The position numbers were made by a program, and so were the translations under genes. A DNA stretch of 16,922 nt from an archaeon (lineage in GTDB: Archaea; Asgardarchaeota; Heimdallarchaeia; Hodarchaeales; S146-22). Under the pieces are notes generated by a model. It worked only from the letters and a program-made list of their open reading frames with translations, made no database searches and was not told where the DNA came from. Shown piece by piece: positions 1,644 to 16,922 of this stretch (the stretch's first letter is position 1; the number at the start of each line of letters is the position of its first letter). The DNA lies in the NCBI GenBank assembly GCA_024276395.1, contig JAJRXH010000099.1:1-16922 (forward strand). Reading direction: 5' to 3'.

Positions 1644-4600
1644 ATGGTAGAGCAATATTTAAATGAGTTGGCGCCATTGTATGATAGGAGAGATACTATG
1701 TCCAACCTCAGAGCAATTCTTGATGAATTAACCGCTAAAGGCATTGATACTGATCAACTAAAAGAAATCTTGGTAAAAAACCACAAGAAATTACAAAAAA
1801 ATTCAGATATCAATGATCTGCAGGTAATGATTTATCGCTTGATGGCACCCGTCTTTGGGGCTGGAGAAGCACGAACCATTGCTGCAAAAATCGTTCCCAT
1901 CCTACCTGAATTATTAAAAAACGAATTGGTAGATGGAGAAAAAAGGGAAGATATAGGGAGACCAGCCTTTTTCACTCTTACCCACCAAGGTGAAACTCTC
2001 ACGGGGTATCTCCCGCGAAGCTTTCATCAAGGCCTTCTAAAGCTTGCATCACAGCCACCAATTACGTATCTCGAACTAAACGAATACTTTTTCAGTATTT
2101 CTGATTCGTCACTCGATTCTCTCGTACGAGATCAGTCTGCAGAAGAAATTTTTCAATGGACGACAAAACGCCTTCTTTCTTGGCCAAAACTGTATGGTGA
2201 GGATGAACATGACATTTATCTCTTCTATTTCTCGGACTTTGAAGATAAACACGTGATGCATTCCAATGACATCGTTTTTCATGCGAGAGAGACTTGGGAT
2301 CGAATTGGAATTAGGATAATTTGGCCAATTGAAGAGAGAAAACTCCGAGATCTTAACGCTACTAGCATCATCCTGTACATGATGAACCTTGCCTTCAAGC
2401 ATTTGGCTGGCATCTTCGAATGGAAGCGACTATTTTCAAAGATAGAAAAAGATGCAATCATAAATGCAAATATTGATGAATTAAATACTTTTTTTATTCA
2501 CTTACTCCAAGGATATCTCAATTATTTCATCAATCCAAGAATACATGATCATTCATTCAGTATCAAACTCGAATCAGTCCACGATTTCAAGCATGAATTA
2601 GGGTTCACTCCCGAACAATTCATCAAAACAAGTGATCCAAGCCTCCAACAATTTGGGTCTAGACTGATGAACTTAATGTTCCATTGGAAATTATTCCGAT
2701 GGATGGGCTTCAGAGACGAGGGTCATGGCAACACATCGAAAGAATCATTTTTTGACTTGTTCATTCTTTTATGCCGTGATATTTTGGGATTTAACATCAG
2801 TTCACCCCTCCAAATCCCATCATTAGCCGAGATCAAGAAACGATGTGAAGAAATTGCCCCAGAAAAACCATTTGAGAAGGCAATCGTTGAGCCAATAGCT
2901 AAAGAGCTCACCTATCTTGTCAAGATTGTTACCCTAAAAGGGGGAATTAACCAAGACCTCACCATGTCTTTCAGAAATGGATATCTTTCAGCTCGTATCG
3001 GCAAAACCTTACATCAAATCTATACCTACTACCTAGAATGGAAAGGAGAAGAAAAAGGGCAAGAAAGTTTTGTATTGTACATTTATCGAGTGGCAGCGGA
3101 AGGGCTTGTATCAAGCAATAACATGGTAATTAAGAAAAGCCTCCAATATCTGATAGACATGGAAGAAGAAGGATTTGGAAGAAACAAGAATAGAACCATC
3201 AAATCGGACATGGTACAAGACCTATTGAAACTCCATAACGTAATCCTCATAAAAAAACTTGACGATGCTGAAAGCACGCAACAATGGATTAAGAACACGG
3301 TCTTGCAAGTATTCTCTTTCGTCCATGGTGCCCGATTGTTCAAGCTCCTGAGAGAAGGGTTCAAAAGATTTGAAGAAAGACCAATAAGAGTCATTTGGAA
3401 TCCTGATGAACAAGAAGAGATGCACTCTGAACTGCAATCAATGCTTTCCCGTGCTCTTGAAACAAAAGAAACTATTTTAAGCATCCAAAACATCATCAAA
3501 AGAGCAATGCAGGAAGGAATTCGGAAGATACCCCCTGACAATGAAATCTTTGACACCATCATCGAAAACTTACCATTGGAAAAAAACCTAACTTTAAAGG
3601 AAAATGTCCACCAATTTGTCCTTGTTCTCACGAACTTGCTTCATAGCCACATCAACCCGCTCTTAGGAAGAAAAACCGAAGAGAAAGAAGAACGTGTCTC
3701 TTTCACTGATGAATTAGACCAAGCAGTGACAACTGAAATATTTCTACAGAGAATTTTCAGAGAAAATCATGAAAATTTCTCAAAAATAGCCAAAAACAAA
3801 TCAACTTGGCTATATCAGCAAGATGATTCCATCATAAAAGAGTTAGAACCACTACTCATTGGAGGAGTAATTTCATTAGTTCTACACAAGAGACCTTTAA
3901 GCAATGACGAATACAAGATACTTTCTTTTGAAGATATCCTACAATTACTGGAAACTGAACTATTACACCTATCTCACACATCAATAATCCAAGAAAAAGA
4001 CGACTCGGAAAAAATAAAACTTTTCAAGACCTACATCATTGATAGCGTGGAATTATGGAGTAACGTGTTTAGAGTATCAGACCTTCTGAGCGTCTTTCTT
4101 CAATCTCAAGACTTCCTGGATGCGTTCTCAATCACGGTTAACAACACTAACAAGGAAAACCTCCTCCAAAAACCAGAAATCAGAAGCTTTCTAGCGCAAC
4201 ATTACATTCGAGGTTGGATTTCAGCATGGTTCAACCATGGGATTGATTTTGCCGAAAATGCAGTTAACACGCCAGATCCACCAGAGGAACTTCTTTGGGA
4301 AATTGTTGATGCGACGCGGCGAGTGCATTTCCCACAATTTCTTCGATGGTTTTTAATTGGAAACACGAACCTTTCCTTGGAACGAATCAACCATCTAATG
4401 GAAAAATATCTTCTTCTCACGGAAACCATCGTACAAGGAGAGTTTTTAAGTCTTTATCCAGAAATCTGTCTAGCATTCTTGGTACTGCACGGTTCTGGTA
4501 CCAGAAACCTGACACATCTTTCATCATTATTACAAATCCCTAATACGGAATGTGACATTCATTTCCTTAAAAGCGGTGAAATACACTCCGTGATGAATCT

Positions 4601-5627
4601 TTTGACAGACTCAGATGCTCCGTTTCCAAAAGATATTCTCAAGAATGTCGCTGCCCTAAGTATACTACATGGACTAGAACTGGAAGCCATTACCTTTCGC
4701 TTGCCATCATCATCCATCTACCTCACGATGAGTTACTTCCCACGAGTAAGCGCATTTACAGATGTTGCTGGGACAACCAGCATCATTCTAACTATGCAGC
4801 GTCCTTTATCCGAACAGATAGCCGATCTCGCTCCGAAAAATGCCGAAGTCATCAGCGGTCTTTATTCGCTATTTACTGACAATCCCATTGATAATCCCAT
4901 TGGTAAACTTGTACTTCTCCAACGGCTGCGATTCACCACGATAGCTGCACTCAAAAACCTTGATTTCATCAAAAAAATGAAAATGCCCAGCGATCTCGAC
5001 ATTCAACTTTCCATTTCTAAAGATGAAACCACGCTATCCCGTGACTATGATGTAATTGGTTTATTTCATCTAAAACTCGGAAAAATCGATCAATCTACCA
5101 GTGAAAGCAAAATTTACGTGAGAAAGATCCAGTTTTACGGAAAAAAATTGAATCAATTCTTGTACATTAATCAATTTTTCCTCGCCTTTCTGCCCTTATC
5201 CACAACAGTGTCTCATTCTCTAGAAACCTCTAAGAGTCTCGGAACGAAAACGTATCTCGCCCGAGGACGTTCATTGTTCCTCACTCCCGTAGCGTCAATA
5301 TTCAGATTCAAGGACGAGAACGACGATAAAAGAAAAATCATCATCCTATACGATTCTCCAACTGAAGATACCATGGATCTTTGCATTCTATGGGAAAGCA
5401 AAATGGTCAAAGAGCCATATAGCGTGAACAAAGCTAGATTCATTCTAGAATCAAATCGAGTGAAGGAAACAGGAGCTTGGAATCTAGAAAATCTTGCATC
5501 AAAAATCTTTTCCTTGCCAGTACGAACACCATACTTCGACGTGACAAAAAAGGACACAACCACGGGGAAAGAAATGCCAGAAACTGACTTGGAAAAGATT
5601 GAAAGCATTTCTCTCGGAGGATTTTGA
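1644..5627 (+). CDS. Large (1327 aa) hypothetical protein with no recognisable domain; predicted soluble and largely helical, with a more beta/Ser-Thr-rich C-terminal ~300 aa
   Basis: This is the longest uninterrupted ORF in the window, and every antisense ORF within it is short. I saw no P-loop, no TM segments and no catalytic signature. An alternative start is ATG 1698 (aa 19), preceded by AGGAG (1686-1690) at 7-nt spacing. The stop TGA (5625-5627) abuts the next gene. Confidence 0.85.
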   Translation: MVEQYLNELAPLYDRRDTMSNLRAILDELTAKGIDTDQLKEILVKNHKKLQKNSDINDLQVMIYRLMAPVFGAGEARTIAAKIVPILPELLKNELVDGEKREDIGRPAFFTLTHQGETLTGYLPRSFHQGLLKLASQPPITYLELNEYFFSISDSSLDSLVRDQSAEEIFQWTTKRLLSWPKLYGEDEHDIYLFYFSDFEDKHVMHSNDIVFHARETWDRIGIRIIWPIEERKLRDLNATSIILYMMNLAFKHLAGIFEWKRLFSKIEKDAIINANIDELNTFFIHLLQGYLNYFINPRIHDHSFSIKLESVHDFKHELGFTPEQFIKTSDPSLQQFGSRLMNLMFHWKLFRWMGFRDEGHGNTSKESFFDLFILLCRDILGFNISSPLQIPSLAEIKKRCEEIAPEKPFEKAIVEPIAKELTYLVKIVTLKGGINQDLTMSFRNGYLSARIGKTLHQIYTYYLEWKGEEKGQESFVLYIYRVAAEGLVSSNNMVIKKSLQYLIDMEEEGFGRNKNRTIKSDMVQDLLKLHNVILIKKLDDAESTQQWIKNTVLQVFSFVHGARLFKLLREGFKRFEERPIRVIWNPDEQEEMHSELQSMLSRALETKETILSIQNIIKRAMQEGIRKIPPDNEIFDTIIENLPLEKNLTLKENVHQFVLVLTNLLHSHINPLLGRKTEEKEERVSFTDELDQAVTTEIFLQRIFRENHENFSKIAKNKSTWLYQQDDSIIKELEPLLIGGVISLVLHKRPLSNDEYKILSFEDILQLLETELLHLSHTSIIQEKDDSEKIKLFKTYIIDSVELWSNVFRVSDLLSVFLQSQDFLDAFSITVNNTNKENLLQKPEIRSFLAQHYIRGWISAWFNHGIDFAENAVNTPDPPEELLWEIVDATRRVHFPQFLRWFLIGNTNLSLERINHLMEKYLLLTETIVQGEFLSLYPEICLAFLVLHGSGTRNLTHLSSLLQIPNTECDIHFLKSGEIHSVMNLLTDSDAPFPKDILKNVAALSILHGLELEAITFRLPSSSIYLTMSYFPRVSAFTDVAGTTSIILTMQRPLSEQIADLAPKNAEVISGLYSLFTDNPIDNPIGKLVLLQRLRFTTIAALKNLDFIKKMKMPSDLDIQLSISKDETTLSRDYDVIGLFHLKLGKIDQSTSESKIYVRKIQFYGKKLNQFLYINQFFLAFLPLSTTVSHSLETSKSLGTKTYLARGRSLFLTPVASIFRFKDENDDKRKIIILYDSPTEDTMDLCILWESKMVKEPYSVNKARFILESNRVKETGAWNLENLASKIFSLPVRTPYFDVTKKDTTTGKEMPETDLEKIESISLGGF
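1654..1664. promoter_or_regulatory. AT-rich near-palindromic TATA-like element between divergent hisS and the 1327-aa gene (possible bidirectional promoter core)
   Basis: 'aatatttaaat' reads as TATA-like on both strands. It lies ~50 nt upstream of the hisS ATG (1609) and ~39 nt upstream of the in-frame ATG at 1698. A second TATA-like 'atattaat' (1608-1615) could instead serve the ATG at 1644, so the assignment is ambiguous. Confidence 0.35.
5616..5620 (+). promoter_or_regulatory. Shine-Dalgarno (GGAGG) for the GTPase gene, embedded in the last codons of the upstream ORF
   Basis: The sequence reads 'ctcGGAGGattttgaGTG', so GGAGG ends 7 nt before GTG 5628. The same motif class precedes other starts in the window. 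Confidence 0.6.
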
Positions 5628-6953
5628 GTGAAAATAGATCTCATTCTCATTGGAGATGGCATGTCTGGGAAAACAACTCTCATCAAAAAACATACCGAGT
5701 TTGTTTTTCAGAAGTTCGCCTTAAAATTCGAGCAATATCTCATTGAGCGTGGCCTGCCGTCATTTTCACAATGGAAAAATGAATTCCAAGACATTAATCG
5801 CGCTCTAAAACTAATAGAAAGAGATCTTAGTGCAAGTTTCATGGCAAATGACCCAGAATATCCACAAAAAAAATACTTTGAATGGGCAACACGAAATGCA
5901 AACGTGATAAAGTTCGAGGACTGGCTCAATCATTTAGGAGTTGATCTTGGTAACCACTTATCCACAGATACGTCAGTTGCCACACTCGGAATGGATACCA
6001 TCCAGATGAAATATCCCATCAAGGATGACCTCATCCACATCAGCGGATATGATCTAGGGGGACAAAACATCTATGATCAAATTAGAGACGTGATTACTGG
6101 TTTGGCTAAGCCAAAATCTTTCCTTGTTGTAGTATTCGACTCATCTCGTTTCCTTTCTTGTGAAAATAGCATAAGACAATTGCTTAGTAGCTTGAAAAAG
6201 TTTGAAATGAAAGAATATACCCCAACAATCCTTGCTGTCCTCAACAAAATTGACTTGCAGGATTATATGAGCAAGGAAAAATGGCAAGAATTTACCGCCA
6301 AGCACATTGCAACCACGTTACAAGAACTAAGGAAAAAAGATATCAAATACCAAGTTCCTAATCTATTATTTAAGGAAGAAATACGAGAGATCATCCTACC
6401 AAGATCAGATTTAGTTGGTTTTGAACACCTAGAGGCGTTAATATACCACAGTCTCAAGAAAAATGAGGCCACCTTTGGAAAAAATCCATTTACTGAAATA
6501 AATACAAAAGCCATTGCCAGGGAAATAGCTGCCCAACTCTTACTCTACCAAAACCCCAATCCAAGCTATTATGAAGGACTAAGAAAATTACTGTTTGAAC
6601 AAAGGCCATTAGCCGTCCAATACATCGAAGGTATTTCCCTCACTACTTTAGAGCCAGGAAGGCACGAAAAAGAAGCATTAAGAAGGTTAAGAAAGAAGTT
6701 TGAAGGCTTCGAACTTGACCTCACTTCCATTAATGCAAACGTGGTCAAAGCCGTCATTCTTAATTCCATCAACACGAAAGACCTCGAGATGACACTAAAG
6801 GAACAAGGTTATCCCTTATTCAAGACTAGTGCCCTTGAAGGGACAGGAATTCCAGAATTATTCGATTATATCACGAAATTATCGAGAGAAAAACAAAAAG
6901 ATTTGAATTCAGAAAAAAGAAGAATTCCAAGGAGACTGGGAAAAATTACGTGA
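5628..6953 (+). CDS. Atypical small-GTPase-superfamily protein (441 aa) with two large insertions; G3 is Arf/Galpha/Rag-like (DxGGQ)
   Basis: G1 is 'GDGMSGKT' (aa 9-16). The switch I candidate is 'ATLGMDT' (aa 118-124). G3 is 'DLGGQ' (aa 142-146, nt 6051-6065). G4 is 'NKID' (aa 206-209, nt 6243-6254). G5 is 'TSALEG' (aa 400-405). There are ~95 aa between the G1 helix and switch I, and ~185 aa between G4 and G5. A GTG start is required because any later ATG would delete the P-loop. Confidence 0.85.
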   Translation: MKIDLILIGDGMSGKTTLIKKHTEFVFQKFALKFEQYLIERGLPSFSQWKNEFQDINRALKLIERDLSASFMANDPEYPQKKYFEWATRNANVIKFEDWLNHLGVDLGNHLSTDTSVATLGMDTIQMKYPIKDDLIHISGYDLGGQNIYDQIRDVITGLAKPKSFLVVVFDSSRFLSCENSIRQLLSSLKKFEMKEYTPTILAVLNKIDLQDYMSKEKWQEFTAKHIATTLQELRKKDIKYQVPNLLFKEEIREIILPRSDLVGFEHLEALIYHSLKKNEATFGKNPFTEINTKAIAREIAAQLLLYQNPNPSYYEGLRKLLFEQRPLAVQYIEGISLTTLEPGRHEKEALRRLRKKFEGFELDLTSINANVVKAVILNSINTKDLEMTLKEQGYPLFKTSALEGTGIPELFDYITKLSREKQKDLNSEKRRIPRRLGKIT

Positions 6954-7351: not shown

Positions 7352-8068
7352 ATGAAGAGAATGCTTGTTGTCTCTGATACTCATTCCAATCTCGAGGCAT
7401 TAGAAGCAATTTTAAAAAATCCGATGGCAAAATCCGCCGAAATCAAAGCGTGCATTGGCGATATTGTTGGATATGGACCAAATCCCAATGAAATCATTTC
7501 CATCGTAAAAACCTTTCAGCACGTGGTACCTGGCAACCATGATGCAGCAGCTCTACTAGGTGACTCTCCGGTATTCAATAGAGCAGCCAGAAAGGCAATT
7601 TCATGGACACAACAACAACTAACAGAAGAAAGCAAAAAGTTTTTAGCAAGCTTACCTCGACCTCATGAGATATACCACTTTACCTGGGAGGGGTCAGCTT
7701 TTGCAGCTTGCCATGGTTCTCCATTCCTTCCCTTACTAGGATATGTTTATCCTAGAACTAATCCAGATGTTCTGAATCGGATGTTATCAAAAGCTAAAGC
7801 TGATATCCTTCTGTTAGGACATACACACATTCCCATGGTTTACCACAATGGCAATGAAAAGGCCAAGCTGATATTGAATCCCGGGTCAAGCGGACAACCA
7901 CGAGATTTGGATCCTCGTGCATCTGCTCTCGTGCTAGAATATGAAGGTGGGAATGAATTCACGCCAATTTTCATTCGAGAAGAATATGAGATCGAAATAA
8001 CAGCTGATAAAATAAAAGATGCAGGATTGCCAAACGTCCTCGCAGAAAGACTCTTTCTAGGAAGATAG
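7352..8068 (+). CDS. Metallophosphoesterase (calcineurin-like, YfcE/MJ0936/ApaH-related family)
   Basis: The ordered signature motifs are 'VVSDTHSN' (DxH), 'GDIVGYG' (GD), 'GNHD' and 'GHTH', followed by 'LNPGSSGQPRD'. Length is 238 aa. Confidence 0.9.
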   Translation: MKRMLVVSDTHSNLEALEAILKNPMAKSAEIKACIGDIVGYGPNPNEIISIVKTFQHVVPGNHDAAALLGDSPVFNRAARKAISWTQQQLTEESKKFLASLPRPHEIYHFTWEGSAFAACHGSPFLPLLGYVYPRTNPDVLNRMLSKAKADILLLGHTHIPMVYHNGNEKAKLILNPGSSGQPRDLDPRASALVLEYEGGNEFTPIFIREEYEIEITADKIKDAGLPNVLAERLFLGR

Positions 8069-10915: not shown

Positions 10916-12928
10916 ATGAAAAGCAACGAAATCGAATCCAAGAATGGTGTGGAAATCATCATCTTGGCATGTTCCATCATATTCTTCGCCGCTGCTGTTT
11001 ATGGAGTCCAAAGAAGCATTTTGAGCATTCAGACACAACAAGATGTCAGTTTTACTAAATGGGTTCTAAGCGGACTTTTTCTTTCCGCAGCTGCCTCATT
11101 GATTGGATTTGGCTTAACAAAAGCCGCAATGGGAACCATCTCGGGAATACTTGTCGACAGGTCAGGATTCTTTAAAGTTGCCTCATTAGGTGCGACCTTG
11201 TTCGTCATCAGTCCGACACTAGCCTCACTATGGACGAATCCACTCATCACGACCTTTAGTAACCTTCTTTTAGGAATGGGTGAAGGAATATTATACACTG
11301 CGGTTTCCATTCAGTTAGGACAAATGGTAAGCTCACGGAAGCGAGCTACGATGATGAGCATCATGGAGCTTTCAATTTTTTTAGGCTATTCAATCGGAGC
11401 ATTAACCCCTGGGATTAAAGTCATCCATGATACTCTTAATCCATTCCTCATTGCCAGCATCTTTGGAGGACTAGCCGCAATTCTCACTTTCAGCATCAAG
11501 TATTTCCCTTTTACTCACCAAAAAAAATCGAAAAAAAACCGTATTAAGAGTAGATTTAGTCATGATTTGAGCTTAAGCAAAAATTTAAGTCCAAGATTAG
11601 CCAAGTTATTACCAAGGCTCCCTGTACAACCTGAAGAACTAATCAAGAAAAAATATAGCGGGTTAAAGCCCTTGCACAACCGCTTACTAGTCACGATATC
11701 CCTAAATGGACACGTGTCCAAATTTGCAGATGCTGTAATAGTCTTATTCTTACCAATATTGCTAGTAAATTTCCGAGATTTTTCATTAGCACAAGCTGCA
11801 CTAGTCTCTTCCGCATTCACGTTTGCATGGGCATTAGCAATGCCATTCTCTGGAAGACTGTCAGATACTTTTGGAAGAAAGCCAGTCACCTTGGTAGGGT
11901 TAGTTGGTCAGGCTATTGCAGTCGGCCAAATAATTAGTGGCACGTCGTTTTTTTCTACTCTGAGCGCGGTGGCTTTAATGGGAATCTTTAGTGGTCTATA
12001 TTATCCAGCAAATCCCTCAGCAGTGTTAGACATGACACCGAGACCCGTTCAAGGAAAATTAATGGGAATTTATAGAGCTAGTAAAGATTTAGGATATGTA
12101 ACTGCACCACCCTTGAGCGCAATCCTAGTCTACTTGTCTTTAGTTGGCTTAAAGGATGTCAACCTTGCTATCAAGATGCCTTTCCTAATTGTCCAGATAG
12201 CATTAATAATAGCTGCAACAAACACGTTCTTCTTTGGCATCGAAACTAGACCGGCTTGGTGGCAGTATCAAACCTCTCTTGAACACGCACTAACGTGTCT
12301 TGCTGCTGTAGATGCTGCTGTGGATGGCATGAGAATCTACCTACGAGATTCAGACCATCCTTTTTTCACGAAAAATCCTAAAAATGAAGAAATTGAAAAA
12401 GAAGCAAGAGAAAAAGCCATTGACGCTAAGCATTATGAAGTAATTGCCGATGAATTATTAGATCAAATTGCAATGAGAACGTATCAAACCATTCAAACGG
12501 CAGCTGATGCGCCCGAATTCATAAAAATAGCACGTCGCTTTGACAGAGTAGCTGGACTGAGTGTCGGAGCGACCATGAGACTCAGAAAGATTGAATTCGA
12601 CTTGATCCCAGAATTTCTACGTGTCACGTTGATTCGACAAGCCAAGGGATTACGAGAACTAATGAACCATGGCATCCAAGGACTAGCCTTGTTGGAACAC
12701 GGAATCGACCAAATAGAATATATCTACAAGAAGACAAGAAAGAAAGAGAAACATCTTGATGACATCTACCTTCAAGCATCACGTTACCTATATTCAAAGG
12801 CGGATTATCTCTCATTCGGCACGTGGATGTCCATTCATAATGTCATCGAGATTCTTGAACAGGCTGCAGATACAATTGAAGATGCTGTCGAAGGCATTCG
12901 CATGCTCTCTCTCAAGTATGTCACTTGA
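10916..12928 (+). CDS. MFS transporter fused to a C-terminal cytoplasmic DUF47/PhoU-like (PhoU_div) domain
   Basis: There are about 12 hydrophobic helices over aa 1-445. MFS motif A occurs in both halves ('GILVDRSGFFKV' at aa 77-88 and 'GRLSDTFGRKPV' at aa 313-324). Aa ~446-670 (nt ~12251-12925) is soluble and helical with a DUF47-like pattern ('HYEVIADELLDQIA', 'IARRFDRVA', 'KKEKHLDDIY', 'VIEILEQAADTIEDAVEGIRMLSLKY'). Confidence 0.82.
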   Translation: MKSNEIESKNGVEIIILACSIIFFAAAVYGVQRSILSIQTQQDVSFTKWVLSGLFLSAAASLIGFGLTKAAMGTISGILVDRSGFFKVASLGATLFVISPTLASLWTNPLITTFSNLLLGMGEGILYTAVSIQLGQMVSSRKRATMMSIMELSIFLGYSIGALTPGIKVIHDTLNPFLIASIFGGLAAILTFSIKYFPFTHQKKSKKNRIKSRFSHDLSLSKNLSPRLAKLLPRLPVQPEELIKKKYSGLKPLHNRLLVTISLNGHVSKFADAVIVLFLPILLVNFRDFSLAQAALVSSAFTFAWALAMPFSGRLSDTFGRKPVTLVGLVGQAIAVGQIISGTSFFSTLSAVALMGIFSGLYYPANPSAVLDMTPRPVQGKLMGIYRASKDLGYVTAPPLSAILVYLSLVGLKDVNLAIKMPFLIVQIALIIAATNTFFFGIETRPAWWQYQTSLEHALTCLAAVDAAVDGMRIYLRDSDHPFFTKNPKNEEIEKEAREKAIDAKHYEVIADELLDQIAMRTYQTIQTAADAPEFIKIARRFDRVAGLSVGATMRLRKIEFDLIPEFLRVTLIRQAKGLRELMNHGIQGLALLEHGIDQIEYIYKKTRKKEKHLDDIYLQASRYLYSKADYLSFGTWMSIHNVIEILEQAADTIEDAVEGIRMLSLKYVT

Positions 12929-12971: not shown

Positions 12972-13913
12972 CTATTCAGGCATCTCTATTCTTATTGTCA
13001 TGGCCTCAAAAGATTTCCACCTAATAGATCTTGGTCTCAATAGGGGAAGAAGACTAATGACGGAAAGGGTAGCATCATCATACTTCTGATGTCGTAGCAA
13101 ATAATGATCGAGAATCTTAATGATTCCTTTTTTCCAGTTCAAGATCATCCTATCTTCACCACCCTCGAACGAAGAGCCATAATTGGCATCAAGACTATAG
13201 GCACGCAATAACCGTGCTAAAGAATCAATCAAAGTACGAGCATTCTCACGAACGGCCGCACCATCCGTCCCTAGCACGGCAATGATACCATTTCTTGGAA
13301 TCCTAAGTTTTAGATATTCTGGTTCTCCCACCACGCCACTTTCATCAACGAATGAACGGATCACATCATCTGAAGACTGCTTAAAAAAGGGAAAGGTTGC
13401 TTGTTTAATTCGTAATTCTACAATCTCACCGTCATACTCGATAACTGGATAAATTAACAGAAGATCAGAATCCCCAAGATTATAGGCATGGAGATACTGA
13501 GTTCCTTCCAAAACCAGACATAAAAAAGTAGTTGAAGACTCAATTACACCATTAACAGCAATTAAACTAGTTAAGTGTTCTTTTATTAGTGGAGATACCT
13601 TTTCACTAATAAATTGTGTCAAGAATTCATCGACTCTCGAAAAGATGTCAGAAGTTGAGGAATATCTCCTCTGAAATTCATCAGAGACCATATTTACAAT
13701 GATGGAAGAAGCTATATCACCCCGTGTTGCTGAAATACCATCAGCAATGAAAATTCCCGGAATATTGTGGTGTTTTAATAGAGACGCACTATCTTCTCCC
13801 TTTACTAAATTATTAATTTTATAATGAGCATGGCCAAAATACCTAGTTTTCGAATGAGTAACAATCCAGGAAAATTCATCTTCAATCGGTTTTGAATTGG
13901 GATTTAAGGGCAT
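12972..13913 (-). CDS. PP2C-like (PPM-family) protein phosphatase, divergent paralog B (313 aa)
   Basis: The ordered PPM-like motifs are 'KGEDSA' (ED), 'FIADGIS' (DG), 'SSTTFLCLV' (GTT-like), 'NLGDSDLLL' (GDS), 'LGTDGAA' (xDG) and 'YDDATLSVISL' (DNxT-like). It shares all of these with the 254-aa ORF at 14568-15332. Confidence 0.65.
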   Translation of the reverse strand: MPLNPNSKPIEDEFSWIVTHSKTRYFGHAHYKINNLVKGEDSASLLKHHNIPGIFIADGISATRGDIASSIIVNMVSDEFQRRYSSTSDIFSRVDEFLTQFISEKVSPLIKEHLTSLIAVNGVIESSTTFLCLVLEGTQYLHAYNLGDSDLLLIYPVIEYDGEIVELRIKQATFPFFKQSSDDVIRSFVDESGVVGEPEYLKLRIPRNGIIAVLGTDGAAVRENARTLIDSLARLLRAYSLDANYGSSFEGGEDRMILNWKKGIIKILDHYLLRHQKYDDATLSVISLLPLLRPRSIRWKSFEAMTIRIEMPE

Positions 13914-13930
13914 CTAAATGCCTTCCATGG

Positions 13931-13940
13931 ATATATTTTT
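13931..13940 (-). promoter_or_regulatory. TATA box for PP2C-like paralog B (near-leaderless)
   Basis: On the minus strand 'aaaaatatat' is centred ~22-25 nt upstream of the ATG (13913). No SD is present. Confidence 0.5.
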
Positions 13941-13945
13941 CTTCT

Positions 13946-13987
13946 CTTCATCCCGTACGAACTAATCTTCATCCCGTACGAACTAAT
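13946..13987. repeat. Perfect 21-nt tandem duplication (2 units), each containing the palindrome CGTACG, directly upstream of the TATA box
   Basis: 'cttcatcccgtacgaactaat' at 13946-13966 is identical to 13967-13987. The CGTACG cores sit at 13954-13959 and 13975-13980. The repeat lies in the 106-nt spacer between the Rab-like stop and the PP2C-B start. Confidence 0.9.
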
Positions 13988-14019
13988 AACAAAACTTTAG
14001 AAGATAGAAATGATTAGGA

Positions 14020-14571
14020 CTAATCAAGGATAGACCTAACAAAGTAATCAAAGGCCTCGTTTACACCTTCACCTGTTTTAGCAGAAGTCTCAAAGAAATA
14101 TACGATGTTAAATTCCTTCCTCAATTTTTCAGCTAATTGCTCACCTTCTTCCTTAGAAACAGTTGTTGTTCTCACGGTATCTCTCAAATCGATCTTATTA
14201 CCAATCAGCATCAACGGTATTTTCTTGTTATCATTATTCTGCAACAACTCTTTCGTCCATAAAGGGATGTTTTCGTAGGAATGAGGATTGGTGACATCAT
14301 ATACCAAAATGGCACCCGATGAACCATTGTAGTACAAGGAACGGACTGTAGCGAATTGCTGCTGTCCAGCCAGATCCCATATCTGTAAGCGAACTTCTCG
14401 ATCATCTATCAAGACGCTTTTCACAGAGAAATCTGCACCAATCGTGACCATATATTTCGTATTAAAACCTTCTCCTAGGTATTTCTTCCGTAATGACGTC
14501 TTACCGACTGCCATATCACCCAATAACGGAATTTTCAAAATTCGGCGGAGCATCTTTCTCATCCTCATCAT
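14020..14571 (-). CDS. Rab-like small GTPase (Ras superfamily), eukaryote-like, without a C-terminal prenylation cysteine
   Basis: G1 is 'GDMAVGKT' (nt 14497-14520). Switch I is 'YMVTIGADF'. G3 is 'LQIWDLAGQQQF', compared with eukaryotic Rab 'LQIWDTAGQERF'. G4 is 'GNKIDL' and G5 is 'ETSAKTGEGVNEAF'. The protein ends '...VRSILD' with no Cys. Its ATG overlaps the upstream TGA (ATGA at 14568-14571). Confidence 0.92.
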   Translation of the reverse strand: MMRMRKMLRRILKIPLLGDMAVGKTSLRKKYLGEGFNTKYMVTIGADFSVKSVLIDDREVRLQIWDLAGQQQFATVRSLYYNGSSGAILVYDVTNPHSYENIPLWTKELLQNNDNKKIPLMLIGNKIDLRDTVRTTTVSKEEGEQLAEKLRKEFNIVYFFETSAKTGEGVNEAFDYFVRSILD

Positions 14572-15332
14572 TTGGAATCAGAATCTTTCATGTAGTCTGG
14601 TGCAGGTACATACATCACACCAATCGTTGCATCATCCTTCACTTCCAACTTGCTCATAAAATGTTGTAACCCATCCTCTAAGGAAAACTTCTCCATTCGG
14701 ACACCATGCAAGTGCAACCATAATGACTTGTATATATCTGGATTATTGAAAGAGATACCATCAGTGGCCATGATGAGAAAACTACCCTCTGGAAAAGATT
14801 GACGCACGGCAAGGAAGGTAGGTAGTGAGGAAACTCCCTTTGATGACACGTATCCTTCTAGCTTGCCCCCACGAGAATATGGAATTAAATAACTTGCTGA
14901 TGCTTGCAAATCACCATTAAAATGAAGTATGGTGCCATCACCAAGATAGTATACATAAATGTAATTTCCATCAGTTGCTCCTATCATGACTGTTGTTGCG
15001 GCATCCTCCGATTTCACACCCTCTTCAAGCAAAGCAAACCGCATATTCTGTGGTGCAGCGTACATGAGATCATCTAACACGCTCTCCAGTTCAGCTGGAT
15101 TACCATCATGCGTGATCGCATAAGAAAAAGCTTCATTCATGATCTGAACCATTATACGAGATGCCACTGAGCCAAGTGTCTGGGATACCCCATCACAAAT
15201 GATAATTCCTCGAAGATGACCATCTACCGTTTCAAAGGTACCAACTGCATCGTGACCATGAAAGTCATTTCGCGAATAAGTTGCGATCTTCACTTGCTCG
15301 AGGACGGCAGTATTAGGTTTCATCCAATTCAC
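14568..15332 (-). CDS. PP2C-like (PPM-family) protein phosphatase, divergent paralog A (254 aa by ORF track, more likely 251 aa starting at ATG 15323)
   Basis: The motifs are 'SRNDFHGHD', 'IICDGVS' (DG), 'AATTVMIGA' (GTT-like), 'YLGDGT' (GDS-like), 'IMATDGIS' (xDG) and 'KDDATIGVMYV' (DNxT-like). The ORF-track start is GTG (15332), only 1 nt after GAGGT (complement of 15334-15338). ATG 15323 has a 10-nt spacing and is preferred. Confidence 0.7.
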   Translation of the reverse strand: MNWMKPNTAVLEQVKIATYSRNDFHGHDAVGTFETVDGHLRGIIICDGVSQTLGSVASRIMVQIMNEAFSYAITHDGNPAELESVLDDLMYAAPQNMRFALLEEGVKSEDAATTVMIGATDGNYIYVYYLGDGTILHFNGDLQASASYLIPYSRGGKLEGYVSSKGVSSLPTFLAVRQSFPEGSFLIMATDGISFNNPDIYKSLWLHLHGVRMEKFSLEDGLQHFMSKLEVKDDATIGVMYVPAPDYMKDSDSK

Positions 15333-15442
15333 AACCTCAATGTTGATGGCAAGAATTACAAGTCATGAAAAATCTAGGCATATTTGTTTTAAAACGGTTC
15401 GCGTGAGTGTTACTGAATGATTGCCCATTGAAAAAGCAAGAT

Positions 15443-15506: not shown

Positions 15507-16922
15507 TCACGAAACCCACTTCATAGCTCGTCTCACGGCATCTTCCCACCTTTTTAGAAGTCTCATCCTAGTTTCCATCTCAATAGCTGGAATGAAAACC
15601 TTATCTAATTCCCATGCTACTTGTAATTCTTTTTTATCCTTCCAAAATCGAGAAGATAAGCCAGCCAAGAAGGCTGCACCCAAAGCAGTGGTTTCTTGAT
15701 TCCTTGGACGCTCACATCTCACGCCTAGAAGATCTGATTGAAACTGCATCAATAAATCATTACGAGAGGCTCCGCCATCAACACGTAACGCTGCAATGGT
15801 CTTACCGCTATCTTGAATCATTGCCTTGAAGACATCATAACAAGAAAAAGCAATGGATTCAAGAGCAGCCCGTGCTAAGTGATGCTTGTTGCTTGCCCTA
15901 GTTAAACCAATGATGAGTCCTCTTGCAGTTTCATCCCAATAAGGCGCAAAAAGTCCAGTGAAAGCAGGCACGAAATAGACACCACCATTATCTGGAACCT
16001 GTCGTGCTAACGTTTCAATTTCCGAGGAAGTTGAGATGATTCCCAATTGATCACGTAGCCACTGCACCACTGCTCCAGCAATGGCCACACTTCCCTCGAG
16101 AGCATAATAAGCAGGCTCTCCTTTCAGTTGATAGGCAACAGTCGTTAATAATCCATGATTCGAACTGACCGGAGTCTTCCCTACATTTTCAAGGAGAAAG
16201 GCACCTGTGCCATAAGTTGCCTTTGCCATCCCTTCTTCAAAGCACAACTGTCCGACCAAAGCTCCTTGTTGATCACCGATAACCGCTGTAATGGGAATTT
16301 CAACATCTTCTTCACTTGACATGTTCAGCAGACCTGTCTTTATCGTTCCATATTCATTTGAATCACTACTTGGAACGATTCGCGGTAATATGTCCTCTGG
16401 AATGTTAAAGAGTGTCAATAATTCTTCGCTCCAGGTTAGGGAACGGAGATCCATCAGCATCATTCGAGAAGCGTTAGTTACATCAGTCACGTGCGTGCCA
16501 CCAGTCAAGTTCCACACAAGCCAACTATCCACCGTGCCCACCTTCAAGGATCCTCTTTCTAGCGTTTTTTTCACGGCACTAGAATTGTCAAGAAGCCAAC
16601 GAATCTTCAAGGCAGAGAAATAGGTAGATACAGGCAACCCCGTGATTTTTCTAATGGTATCCTCATTCATCTTGAATTGTCTTACTAAATCCGCAGTTCT
16701 CAAATCTTGCCACACGATAGCATTATGAAGTGGTCTCCCAGTCCGTTCATCCCACGCTATCGTGGTTTCACGTTGGTTAGTCACACCAATGGCAACAATA
16801 TCACGCAAAGAAACACTTGCCTGATGCATTGCTTCTTTAATTACCTGAACCGTCTTATTTAACATTTCTAATGGATCATGCTCAACCCATCCTGGATGAG
16901 GAAAAATCTGTTGATGCTCTTG
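15507..16922 (-). CDS. glpK: Glycerol kinase, 5'-truncated by the window edge
   Basis: The frame stays open from the track's Met (16865) to nt 16922, reading 'QEHQQIFPHPGWVEHDPLE'. That is the conserved GlpK N-terminal block. It is followed by 'VTNQRETTIAWDERTGRPLHNAIVWQDLRT', 'GTGAFLL' and 'DGGASRNDLLMQFQSDLLG' (FGGY kinase family). About 30 N-terminal residues lie off-window. Confidence 0.95.
   Translation of the reverse strand, partial: QEHQQIFPHPGWVEHDPLEMLNKTVQVIKEAMHQASVSLRDIVAIGVTNQRETTIAWDERTGRPLHNAIVWQDLRTADLVRQFKMNEDTIRKITGLPVSTYFSALKIRWLLDNSSAVKKTLERGSLKVGTVDSWLVWNLTGGTHVTDVTNASRMMLMDLRSLTWSEELLTLFNIPEDILPRIVPSSDSNEYGTIKTGLLNMSSEEDVEIPITAVIGDQQGALVGQLCFEEGMAKATYGTGAFLLENVGKTPVSSNHGLLTTVAYQLKGEPAYYALEGSVAIAGAVVQWLRDQLGIISTSSEIETLARQVPDNGGVYFVPAFTGLFAPYWDETARGLIIGLTRASNKHHLARAALESIAFSCYDVFKAMIQDSGKTIAALRVDGGASRNDLLMQFQSDLLGVRCERPRNQETTALGAAFLAGLSSRFWKDKKELQVAWELDKVFIPAIEMETRMRLLKRWEDAVRRAMKWVS

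Follow-up and report, generated by a model that had tools for sequence, protein, structure and literature searches.

A Rab-like small GTPase gene between two members of a rare PP2C_2 phosphatase subfamily in a Hodarchaeales archaeon

Does a gene order that places a Rab-like small GTPase between two PP2C-type phosphatases reflect a working partnership among the three proteins? The question is raised by contig JAJRXH010000099.1 of the Asgard archaeal assembly GCA_024276395.1 (Heimdallarchaeia; Hodarchaeales; S146-22), all 16,922 nucleotides (nt) of which are referred to here as the window. Within it, three minus-strand open reading frames (ORFs) follow one another in the order that the original prediction had proposed, PP2C-A, GTPase and PP2C-B. 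Our analyses show that the two phosphatases belong to a PP2C subfamily that is rare and has a distinctive loop, yet is recognized by Pfam, and that the components of the locus are of known kinds. Their arrangement appears to be undescribed in the literature searched, as an order of genes rather than a demonstrated system. The reading that we favor, with a probability of about 0.55, is that these are ordinary signaling genes in a lineage-specific neighborhood, with no obligate partnership between them, although a functional link between phosphatase and GTPase is possible. The three genes and their alternative starts are as follows.

14568-15332, minus strand: longest ORF of PP2C-A, with a GTG start at 15332
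14568-15323, minus strand: PP2C-A, a PPM/PP2C_2 phosphatase of 251 amino acids (aa), from ATG 15323, the start kept in relatives
14020-14571, minus strand: longest ORF of the Rab-like small GTPase (183 aa from ATG 14571)
14020-14553, minus strand: Rab-like small GTPase, 177 aa, from the conserved start
12972-13913, minus strand: PP2C-B, 313 aa, a divergent PPM/PP2C_2 phosphatase, from the Pfam PP2C_2 match and an AlphaFold2 model

Both proteins flanking the GTPase are genuine PPM/PP2C-fold phosphatases, A as judged from sequence and B also from a structural model. The Pfam PP2C_2 hidden Markov model (PF13672) scored 39.4 bits with A and 24.5 bits with B, both above the gathering cutoff of 24, the score of B being marginal when taken alone. 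The profile made from A, B and related proteins matched Staphylococcus aureus Stp1 at 1e-6, and the profile of the 70-member family described below matched the solved PPM tPphA along its whole length (5.6e-36), with the family motifs neDa/ADGvGg/GDG/TDG/DDaT falling opposite NQDA/ADGMGGH/GDS/SDG/RDNVT of tPphA. An AlphaFold2 model of B computed on the family alignment reached a predicted local distance difference test score (pLDDT) of 83 and a predicted template modeling score of 0.81. When this model was compared with the PDB by Foldseek, the top 50 matches were all PPM phosphatases, with template modeling scores of up to 0.72 (PstP). Prediction of A from its single sequence was of low confidence (pLDDT 38), and the assignment of A to the PPM fold comes from sequence profiles, the fold model being one of B. 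NCBIfam holds no specific family for A or B, the generic Stp1-like similarity lying far under the cutoff, and the PADLOC models gave no match for A, B or the GTPase.

The acidic positions of the PPM metal center, which had been read as intact in the two proteins, are indeed all kept and align with the motifs of tPphA. Specifically, A carries HD25, D44-G45, D129, D188-G189 and D230-D231-A-T, and B carries ED41, D58-G59, D148, D217-G218 and D279-D280-A-T. These include the metal-coordinating aspartates of motifs 1, 2, 8 and 11, and the metal-site aspartate columns of the family alignment show either no variation or conservation of at least 90%. Replacement of the usual DGMGGH loop was also borne out, with CDGVSQTLG in A and ADGISATRG in B, so that neither protein has the Gly-rich DGxGG(H) loop with its general-acid His. 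The two proteins thus share with bacterial-type PPMs (PF13672; tPphA, Stp1 of S. aureus and Streptococcus agalactiae, and Mycobacterium tuberculosis PstP) the catalytic domain and the predicted fold, as well as the motif-1 Asp, the DG Asp, GD[GS], the xDG Asp and DD/DN-x-T. They differ from them in the DG[VI][ST]xxxG loop, which is one residue shorter than CDGMGGHKAG of Stp1 and lacks the His, in the rarity of their subfamily and, for B, in extra insertions and a C-terminal tail. PP2C-A is probably a stand-alone, Mn2+/Mg2+-dependent and catalytically competent PPM Ser/Thr phosphatase, and the activity of both A and B is predicted from these retained residues.

The proposal that A and B form a distinct subfamily was supported, and the group to which they belong, PP2C_2 proteins with a DG[VI][ST] loop, proved to be very rare. 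A word-indexed homolog search returned one relative for A and none for B, and it was an exhaustive HMMER search that revealed the family. Among 1.84 billion representative proteins, this search gave 69 matches at E≤1e-3, about 10 of which were strong. A profile search with a 7-sequence alignment yielded one locus each from genome and metagenome collections. All 70 family members have PP2C-type Pfam domains only, and the Pfam scan detected no fusion to a GTPase among them. One member, P0127 (L015 7-1845), is 612 aa long; its PP2C domain is N-terminal, and the roughly 290 residues beyond it match nothing in Pfam.

A and B were originally described as clearly paralogs. They are indeed homologous over their full length within one genome (24% identity, E 2e-10), but they are not each other's nearest relatives. 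All-against-all BLAST splits the family into three groups. A belongs to a short clade with P0002 (79% identity) and a protein from locus L013 (51%), and its sister group, at 33-39% identity, carries an N-terminal extension of about 150 aa that is coiled-coil-like. B groups with P0131 and P0194, both at 34%, the other family members showing at most about 29% identity to it. The best matches of B are P0131, P0136, P0124 and the L013 protein, with A in sixth place, and the homologs of B share B-specific insertions. This ranking and the insertions that the homologs of B share led us to reject a recent tandem or local duplication as the origin of A and B.

The middle gene encodes a typical Asgard Rab-like GTPase. 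It matches Pfam Ras with 170 bits, its best PDB matches are Rab7, Rab10, Sec4, Rab8A and the Thorarchaeota Rab 7ezb (E ~1e-36 for the eukaryotic Rabs), and it has the full G1-G5 set (GDMAVGKT, T37, DLAGQ, NKID and SAK). Its best named homologs come from Heimdallarchaeia and other Asgard archaea, and it is 49-58% identical to the aligned GTP-binding proteins labeled Heimdall, Odin, Baldr and Hermod. As in Asgard Rab-like GTPases such as 7ezb, with which it shares the G motifs and the Rab matches, there is no C-terminal prenylation Cys; the tail ends in ...DYFVRSILD, and tails without Cys are also found in most of the aligned Asgard homologs (P0089 ends in Cys). It differs from these GTPases in having a PP2C gene upstream, where the homologs examined have Roadblock genes nearby, and in a P-loop residue. 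A second residue, in switch II, bears on the possible link to the phosphatases. The two codons are the following.

14512-14514, minus strand: Met14 codon, P-loop, equivalent to Ras Gly12 in an alignment of Asgard homologs
14347-14349, minus strand: Thr69 codon, switch II, aligned with Rab10 Thr73 and Rab8A Thr72

Met occupies the Ras-Gly12 position in all three PP2C-linked GTPases (GDMAVGKT or GNMAVGKT), those of the window and of the two relatives introduced below, whereas 9 of the 10 other aligned Asgard homologs have Gly and the remaining one, P0089, has Ala. To judge from its position, Met14 may alter intrinsic or GTPase-activating protein (GAP)-stimulated hydrolysis. In the HMMER alignment to Rab10, FATV of the GTPase lies opposite FHTI. 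All three linked GTPases share Thr69, in place of which the four nearest unlinked homologs have Ala, a contrast that represents one evolutionary event.

A conserved PPM-GTPase module, as the locus was originally taken to suggest, is not what a comparison of genomes revealed. The context survey covered about a dozen loci, many of them on short contigs, and in this small sample the PP2C-GTPase adjacency was found in the window and two relatives only, and on the original prediction's own terms the claim of such a module fails. The two relatives are the assembly GCA_054014235.1 (L001) and a 1.2-kb contig (L021). In both, A is followed by the GTPase and then by a convergent MFS/PhoU gene, and their A and GTPase proteins are 70-81% identical to those of the window. 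The genes that border the locus in the window are listed here.

15507-16865: glycerol kinase gene, upstream of PP2C-A
10916-12928, plus strand: MFS transporter gene (670 aa, from Pfam), convergent and downstream of PP2C-B

The glycerol kinase gene (glpK) lies upstream of A in L001 as well, L021 being too short to show it, and the 670-aa MFS protein has a C-terminal PhoU_div/DUF47 domain fused to it, a fusion that recurs in both L001 and L021. The adjacency was seen in a single narrow clade only, and there as part of a syntenic block. B is absent between the GTPase and MFS genes of L001 and L021, where the distances from the GTPase to the MFS stop are 70 nt and 39 nt, respectively. Because the window is slightly more distant from L001 and L021 than these two are from each other, one gain and one loss of B are equally parsimonious.

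Outside this clade, the genes were found apart. Orthologs of A are 79% (L001), 70% (L021, partial) and 51% (L013) identical to it, and the last of these, from a Heimdallarchaeota metagenome-assembled genome, lies between genes for a 195-aa membrane protein and a 185-aa protein on a 6.6-kb contig that has no GTPase gene. A B-type homolog (L022) has no GTPase neighbor, with 215 nt of noncoding DNA upstream and a convergent ABC ATPase gene downstream. Near the GTPase homologs at L002-L009 (54-58% identity), Roadblock/LC7 genes were found but no PP2C gene. These observations agree with the report that Asgard genomes do not, in general, place small GTPase genes in operons with those of their regulators (PMC10933270). 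The original prediction knew of no established PPM-Rab operon, and likewise no prokaryotic example was found in the literature searched.

Between the window and L001, synonymous sites are saturated and dN/dS is not computable. The nonsynonymous divergence (dN) is lowest for A (0.14), followed by the GTPase (0.17) and the glycerol kinase (0.22). The low values for A and the GTPase at saturated synonymous sites indicate that both genes are under purifying selection. In L021, the A gene has an in-frame TGA at about 17-19 (SKGVS*LPTF) where the window has TCA (Ser), with the GTPase intact; this TGA marks either a pseudogene or an assembly or sequencing error.

The signals that could govern expression of the three genes are as follows.

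14568-14571, minus strand: ATGA, in which the stop of A overlaps the first in-frame GTPase ATG, read from the sequence
14562-14566, minus strand: GAGGA, a Shine-Dalgarno-like motif whose end lies 8 nt before the conserved ATG of the GTPase
15387-15394, minus strand: TATA-like TTTTAAAA upstream of PP2C-A, at the same distance from the A start in L001
13931-13940, minus strand: TATA-like AAAAATATAT, preceding the ATG of B by 18-27 nt, read from the sequence
13945-13986, minus strand: perfect tandem duplication of the 21-nt unit TTAGTTCGTACGGGATGAAGA, directly upstream of the TATA-like element of B

Translational coupling of the GTPase to A had been proposed from the ATGA overlap. The overlap is present, at 14571-14568, but its ATG is probably not the GTPase start, and coupling through it is unlikely. 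ATGA is absent from L001 and L021, in which the GTPase ORF opens at the equivalent of Met7, and a gene caller also picks ATG 14553-14551, 18 nt downstream of the ATGA ATG, for the window GTPase (177 aa). A GAGG motif is found 7-9 nt upstream of this GTPase ATG in all three genomes (window, L001 and L021). Since the start is shared with relatives and the GAGG motif is kept upstream of it, ATG 14553 is the likely start, and it is more likely that the GTPase would be translated from its own ribosome-binding site than via the ATGA overlap. For A, too, the start kept in relatives is the inner one, ATG 15323, and not GTG 15332.

The spacers between the A stop and the GTPase ATG are 14, 34 and 22 nt in the three genomes (14 nt in the window). 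Spacers of 14-34 nt leave no room for a promoter and, together with the conserved TTTTAAAA, make it likely that A and the GTPase are cotranscribed, with TTTTAAAA as the probable promoter of their transcript. The GTPase and B are separated by 106 nt with a TATA element, as originally described; this element, AAAAATATAT at 13940-13931, suggests that B has a promoter of its own. Tandem Repeats Finder reported 2.0 copies of TTAGTTCGTACGGGATGAAGA with a 100% match, and no further copies occur in the window (0 expected by chance). The duplication could be a binding site for a regulator or a scar of the arrival of B. An imperfect 19-nt inverted repeat also flanks B (12890-12908 and 13907-13925, 79% complementary), one arm of which falls within the end of the MFS gene. 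We considered this repeat as evidence of a mobile element and rejected it, judging it likely to be a chance match.

The distant relatives of A pointed to a different genomic association. At all four informative loci of its sister group (L011, L014, L016 and L020), the PP2C gene forms a triad with vWA and Pkinase genes, the PP2C members being P0124, P0125, P0128 and P0130, and no PP2C-GTPase adjacency is seen at these loci. A loop variant of the DG[VI][ST] type is also present in these kinase-linked proteins. The architecture is that of the TerY-P-like triads that were reported as stand-alone antiphage systems (PMC11090510), with the closest non-Heimdall relatives of A (33-39% identity) as the PP2C part. 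The PADLOC TerY-P models do not recognize the triads, however, and their kinases match generic kinase models only; for the relatives, PADLOC returned weak PDC-M21C matches only. The L020 triad (L020 1-13096) adjoins genes for DndB, a methyltransferase, a TIR protein and an AAA ATPase, and may represent an uncatalogued variant of a defense triad. The window differs from these loci in having neither a vWA nor a kinase gene, and A differs from the triad proteins in lacking the coiled-coil-like N-terminal extension. A scan of the window ORFs of at least 110 aa detected no vWA or Pkinase domain, and the genes called in L001, including those in the 10 kb upstream of A, likewise comprise neither a vWA nor a kinase gene that could form such a triad.

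On the reading that we favor, A belongs to a rare subfamily whose more distant members serve as the phosphatase arm of vWA-kinase-PP2C triads. In the Heimdall-like lineage, A would have lost its N-terminal coiled-coil region and its triad partners and come to lie directly upstream of a Rab-like GTPase gene. A and the GTPase would most likely be made from one transcript, starting at a promoter upstream of A, and translation of the GTPase would begin at ATG 14553, served by a separate ribosome-binding site. B would be a separate, older branch of the subfamily, present at this site only in the window genome and probably transcribed from its own promoter. Both phosphatases would most likely act on phosphoproteins generated by kinases that are encoded elsewhere. 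We infer that A and B are not obligate partners of the GTPase.

Several observations weigh against this interpretation. Two independently derived PP2Cs of a rare subfamily flank one GTPase, which is unlikely if placement is random. The gap between A and the GTPase stays within 14-34 nt in three genomes whose synonymous sites are saturated. The linked GTPases share a clade-specific P-loop Met and, at the position of Rab8A Thr72, a Thr that contrasts with the Ala of the nearest unlinked ones. In addition, the context survey from which the narrow distribution was read is small.

The alternative that survives best, which we regard as possible but hold only tentatively, is a phosphorylation switch. 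In this case the GTPase (most plausibly at Thr69) or its regulator would be phosphorylated by an unlinked kinase, and A and B would reset effector binding, which would be an archaeal analog of the control that LRRK2 and PPM1H exert over Rab8A and Rab10. That eukaryotic PPM1H acts as a Rab phosphatase is well established (PMC6850886, PMC8567228), a precedent that the original prediction overlooked, and the Rab site that this enzyme dephosphorylates is the one aligned with Thr69. Such a switch is favored by the probably bicistronic A-GTPase unit, by the presence of B, a further PPM from this rare subfamily, beyond the GTPase gene, and by the intact catalytic residues of A and B. Thr69 itself also favors it, aligning with Rab10 Thr73 and being shared by the three linked GTPases, whereas the nearest unlinked ones have Ala.

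The likeness to PPM1H acting on phospho-Rab8A/Rab10 extends to the PPM fold and to the Thr of the GTPase that aligns with the target switch-II Thr, but not to the features on which Rab recognition depends. PPM1H/J/M are defined by two features, an N-terminal RPxFL anchor and a flap of some 110 residues, from which PPM1H derives its Rab specificity (PMC8567228). Neither A (251 aa) nor B (313 aa) has this flap; about 58 residues separate the GDG and TDG motifs of A, and RPxFL occurs in neither protein. No orthology to PPM1H is evident, PPM1H is not among the listed structural or sequence matches of A and B, including those from the PDB, and no LRRK2-like kinase gene is nearby. The distribution of the genes is also at odds with a switch, since the adjacency is limited to a narrow clade in which unrelated genes are part of the syntenic block, and no pairing was seen for the 51% ortholog of A, the B-type homolog or the GTPase homologs. 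Further, there is no kinase gene nearby in the window or L001, the A gene of L021 has an in-frame TGA beside an intact GTPase gene (possibly a sequencing error), the Thr/Ala contrast amounts to a single evolutionary event, and Asgard GTPase genes in general do not share operons with regulators (PMC10933270). The more specific version, in which PPMs recruited from vWA-kinase-PP2C triads would directly dephosphorylate Thr69 in switch II, with the cotranscribed A as the main enzyme and B as an additional phosphatase, appears improbable.

Still more doubtful is that the locus is a degenerate or rewired vWA-kinase-PP2C defense cassette in which the GTPase would have replaced the vWA and kinase partners, the PP2C genes deriving from cassettes that move within defense islands. 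Among non-Heimdall proteins, the nearest relatives of A all belong to such triads, one of them beside DndB, a methyltransferase and a TIR protein; triads of the TerY-P-like type have reported antiphage activity (PMC11090510), and the distribution of B is patchy. The neighbors of the locus are housekeeping genes, however (glycerol kinase and MFS transporter), there is no effector gene at the locus, and A has evolved more slowly than the glycerol kinase as measured by dN. The lack of PADLOC matches for A, B and the GTPase, and the generic kinase similarity that is all the triad partners show, likewise argue against a defense origin. Least probable of all is the suggestion of the original prediction that the PP2C folds were recruited as noncatalytic GTPase regulators (GAP, guanine nucleotide exchange factor or scaffold), because, although both proteins adjoin the GTPase and have replaced the Gly-rich loop and its general-acid His, all catalytic residues are retained in the pattern of active enzymes, the metal aspartates and GD[GS] are kept across the subfamily, including its kinase-paired triad members, and the loop variant is found in those kinase-linked proteins as well and so is not specific to a GTPase setting.

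A second GTPase locus was noted in the window at 1644-6953 on the plus strand. It opens with a 1327-aa ORF (1644-5627) that has no Pfam or NCBIfam match and ends one base before the GTG of the next gene. The 441-aa product of that gene has a Ras-like G domain interrupted by large insertions, with GDGMSGKT at the N terminus, DLGGQ, NKID, and SAL near the C terminus, and shows a weak G-alpha match. A calcineurin-like phosphoesterase gene follows at 7352-8068.

This analysis provides the first description of the very rare PP2C_2 subfamily with a DG[VI][ST] loop. Its setting matters because the regulation of Asgard small GTPases bears on the origin of eukaryotic membrane trafficking, and genome layout seldom reveals the partners of these GTPases (PMC10933270). 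If the PPM-Rab operon reflects a true functional unit, it would provide a directly testable regulator-substrate pair and an echo of the eukaryotic PPM1H-Rab axis. If Thr69 is indeed a phosphorylation switch, it would represent an independently evolved archaeal counterpart of the LRRK2/PPM1H-Rab switch and involve the first prokaryotic PPM dedicated to a small GTPase. As both phosphatases are small and soluble, the GTPase is small and the candidate Thr is defined, the locus lends itself to a cheap biochemical test of these ideas.

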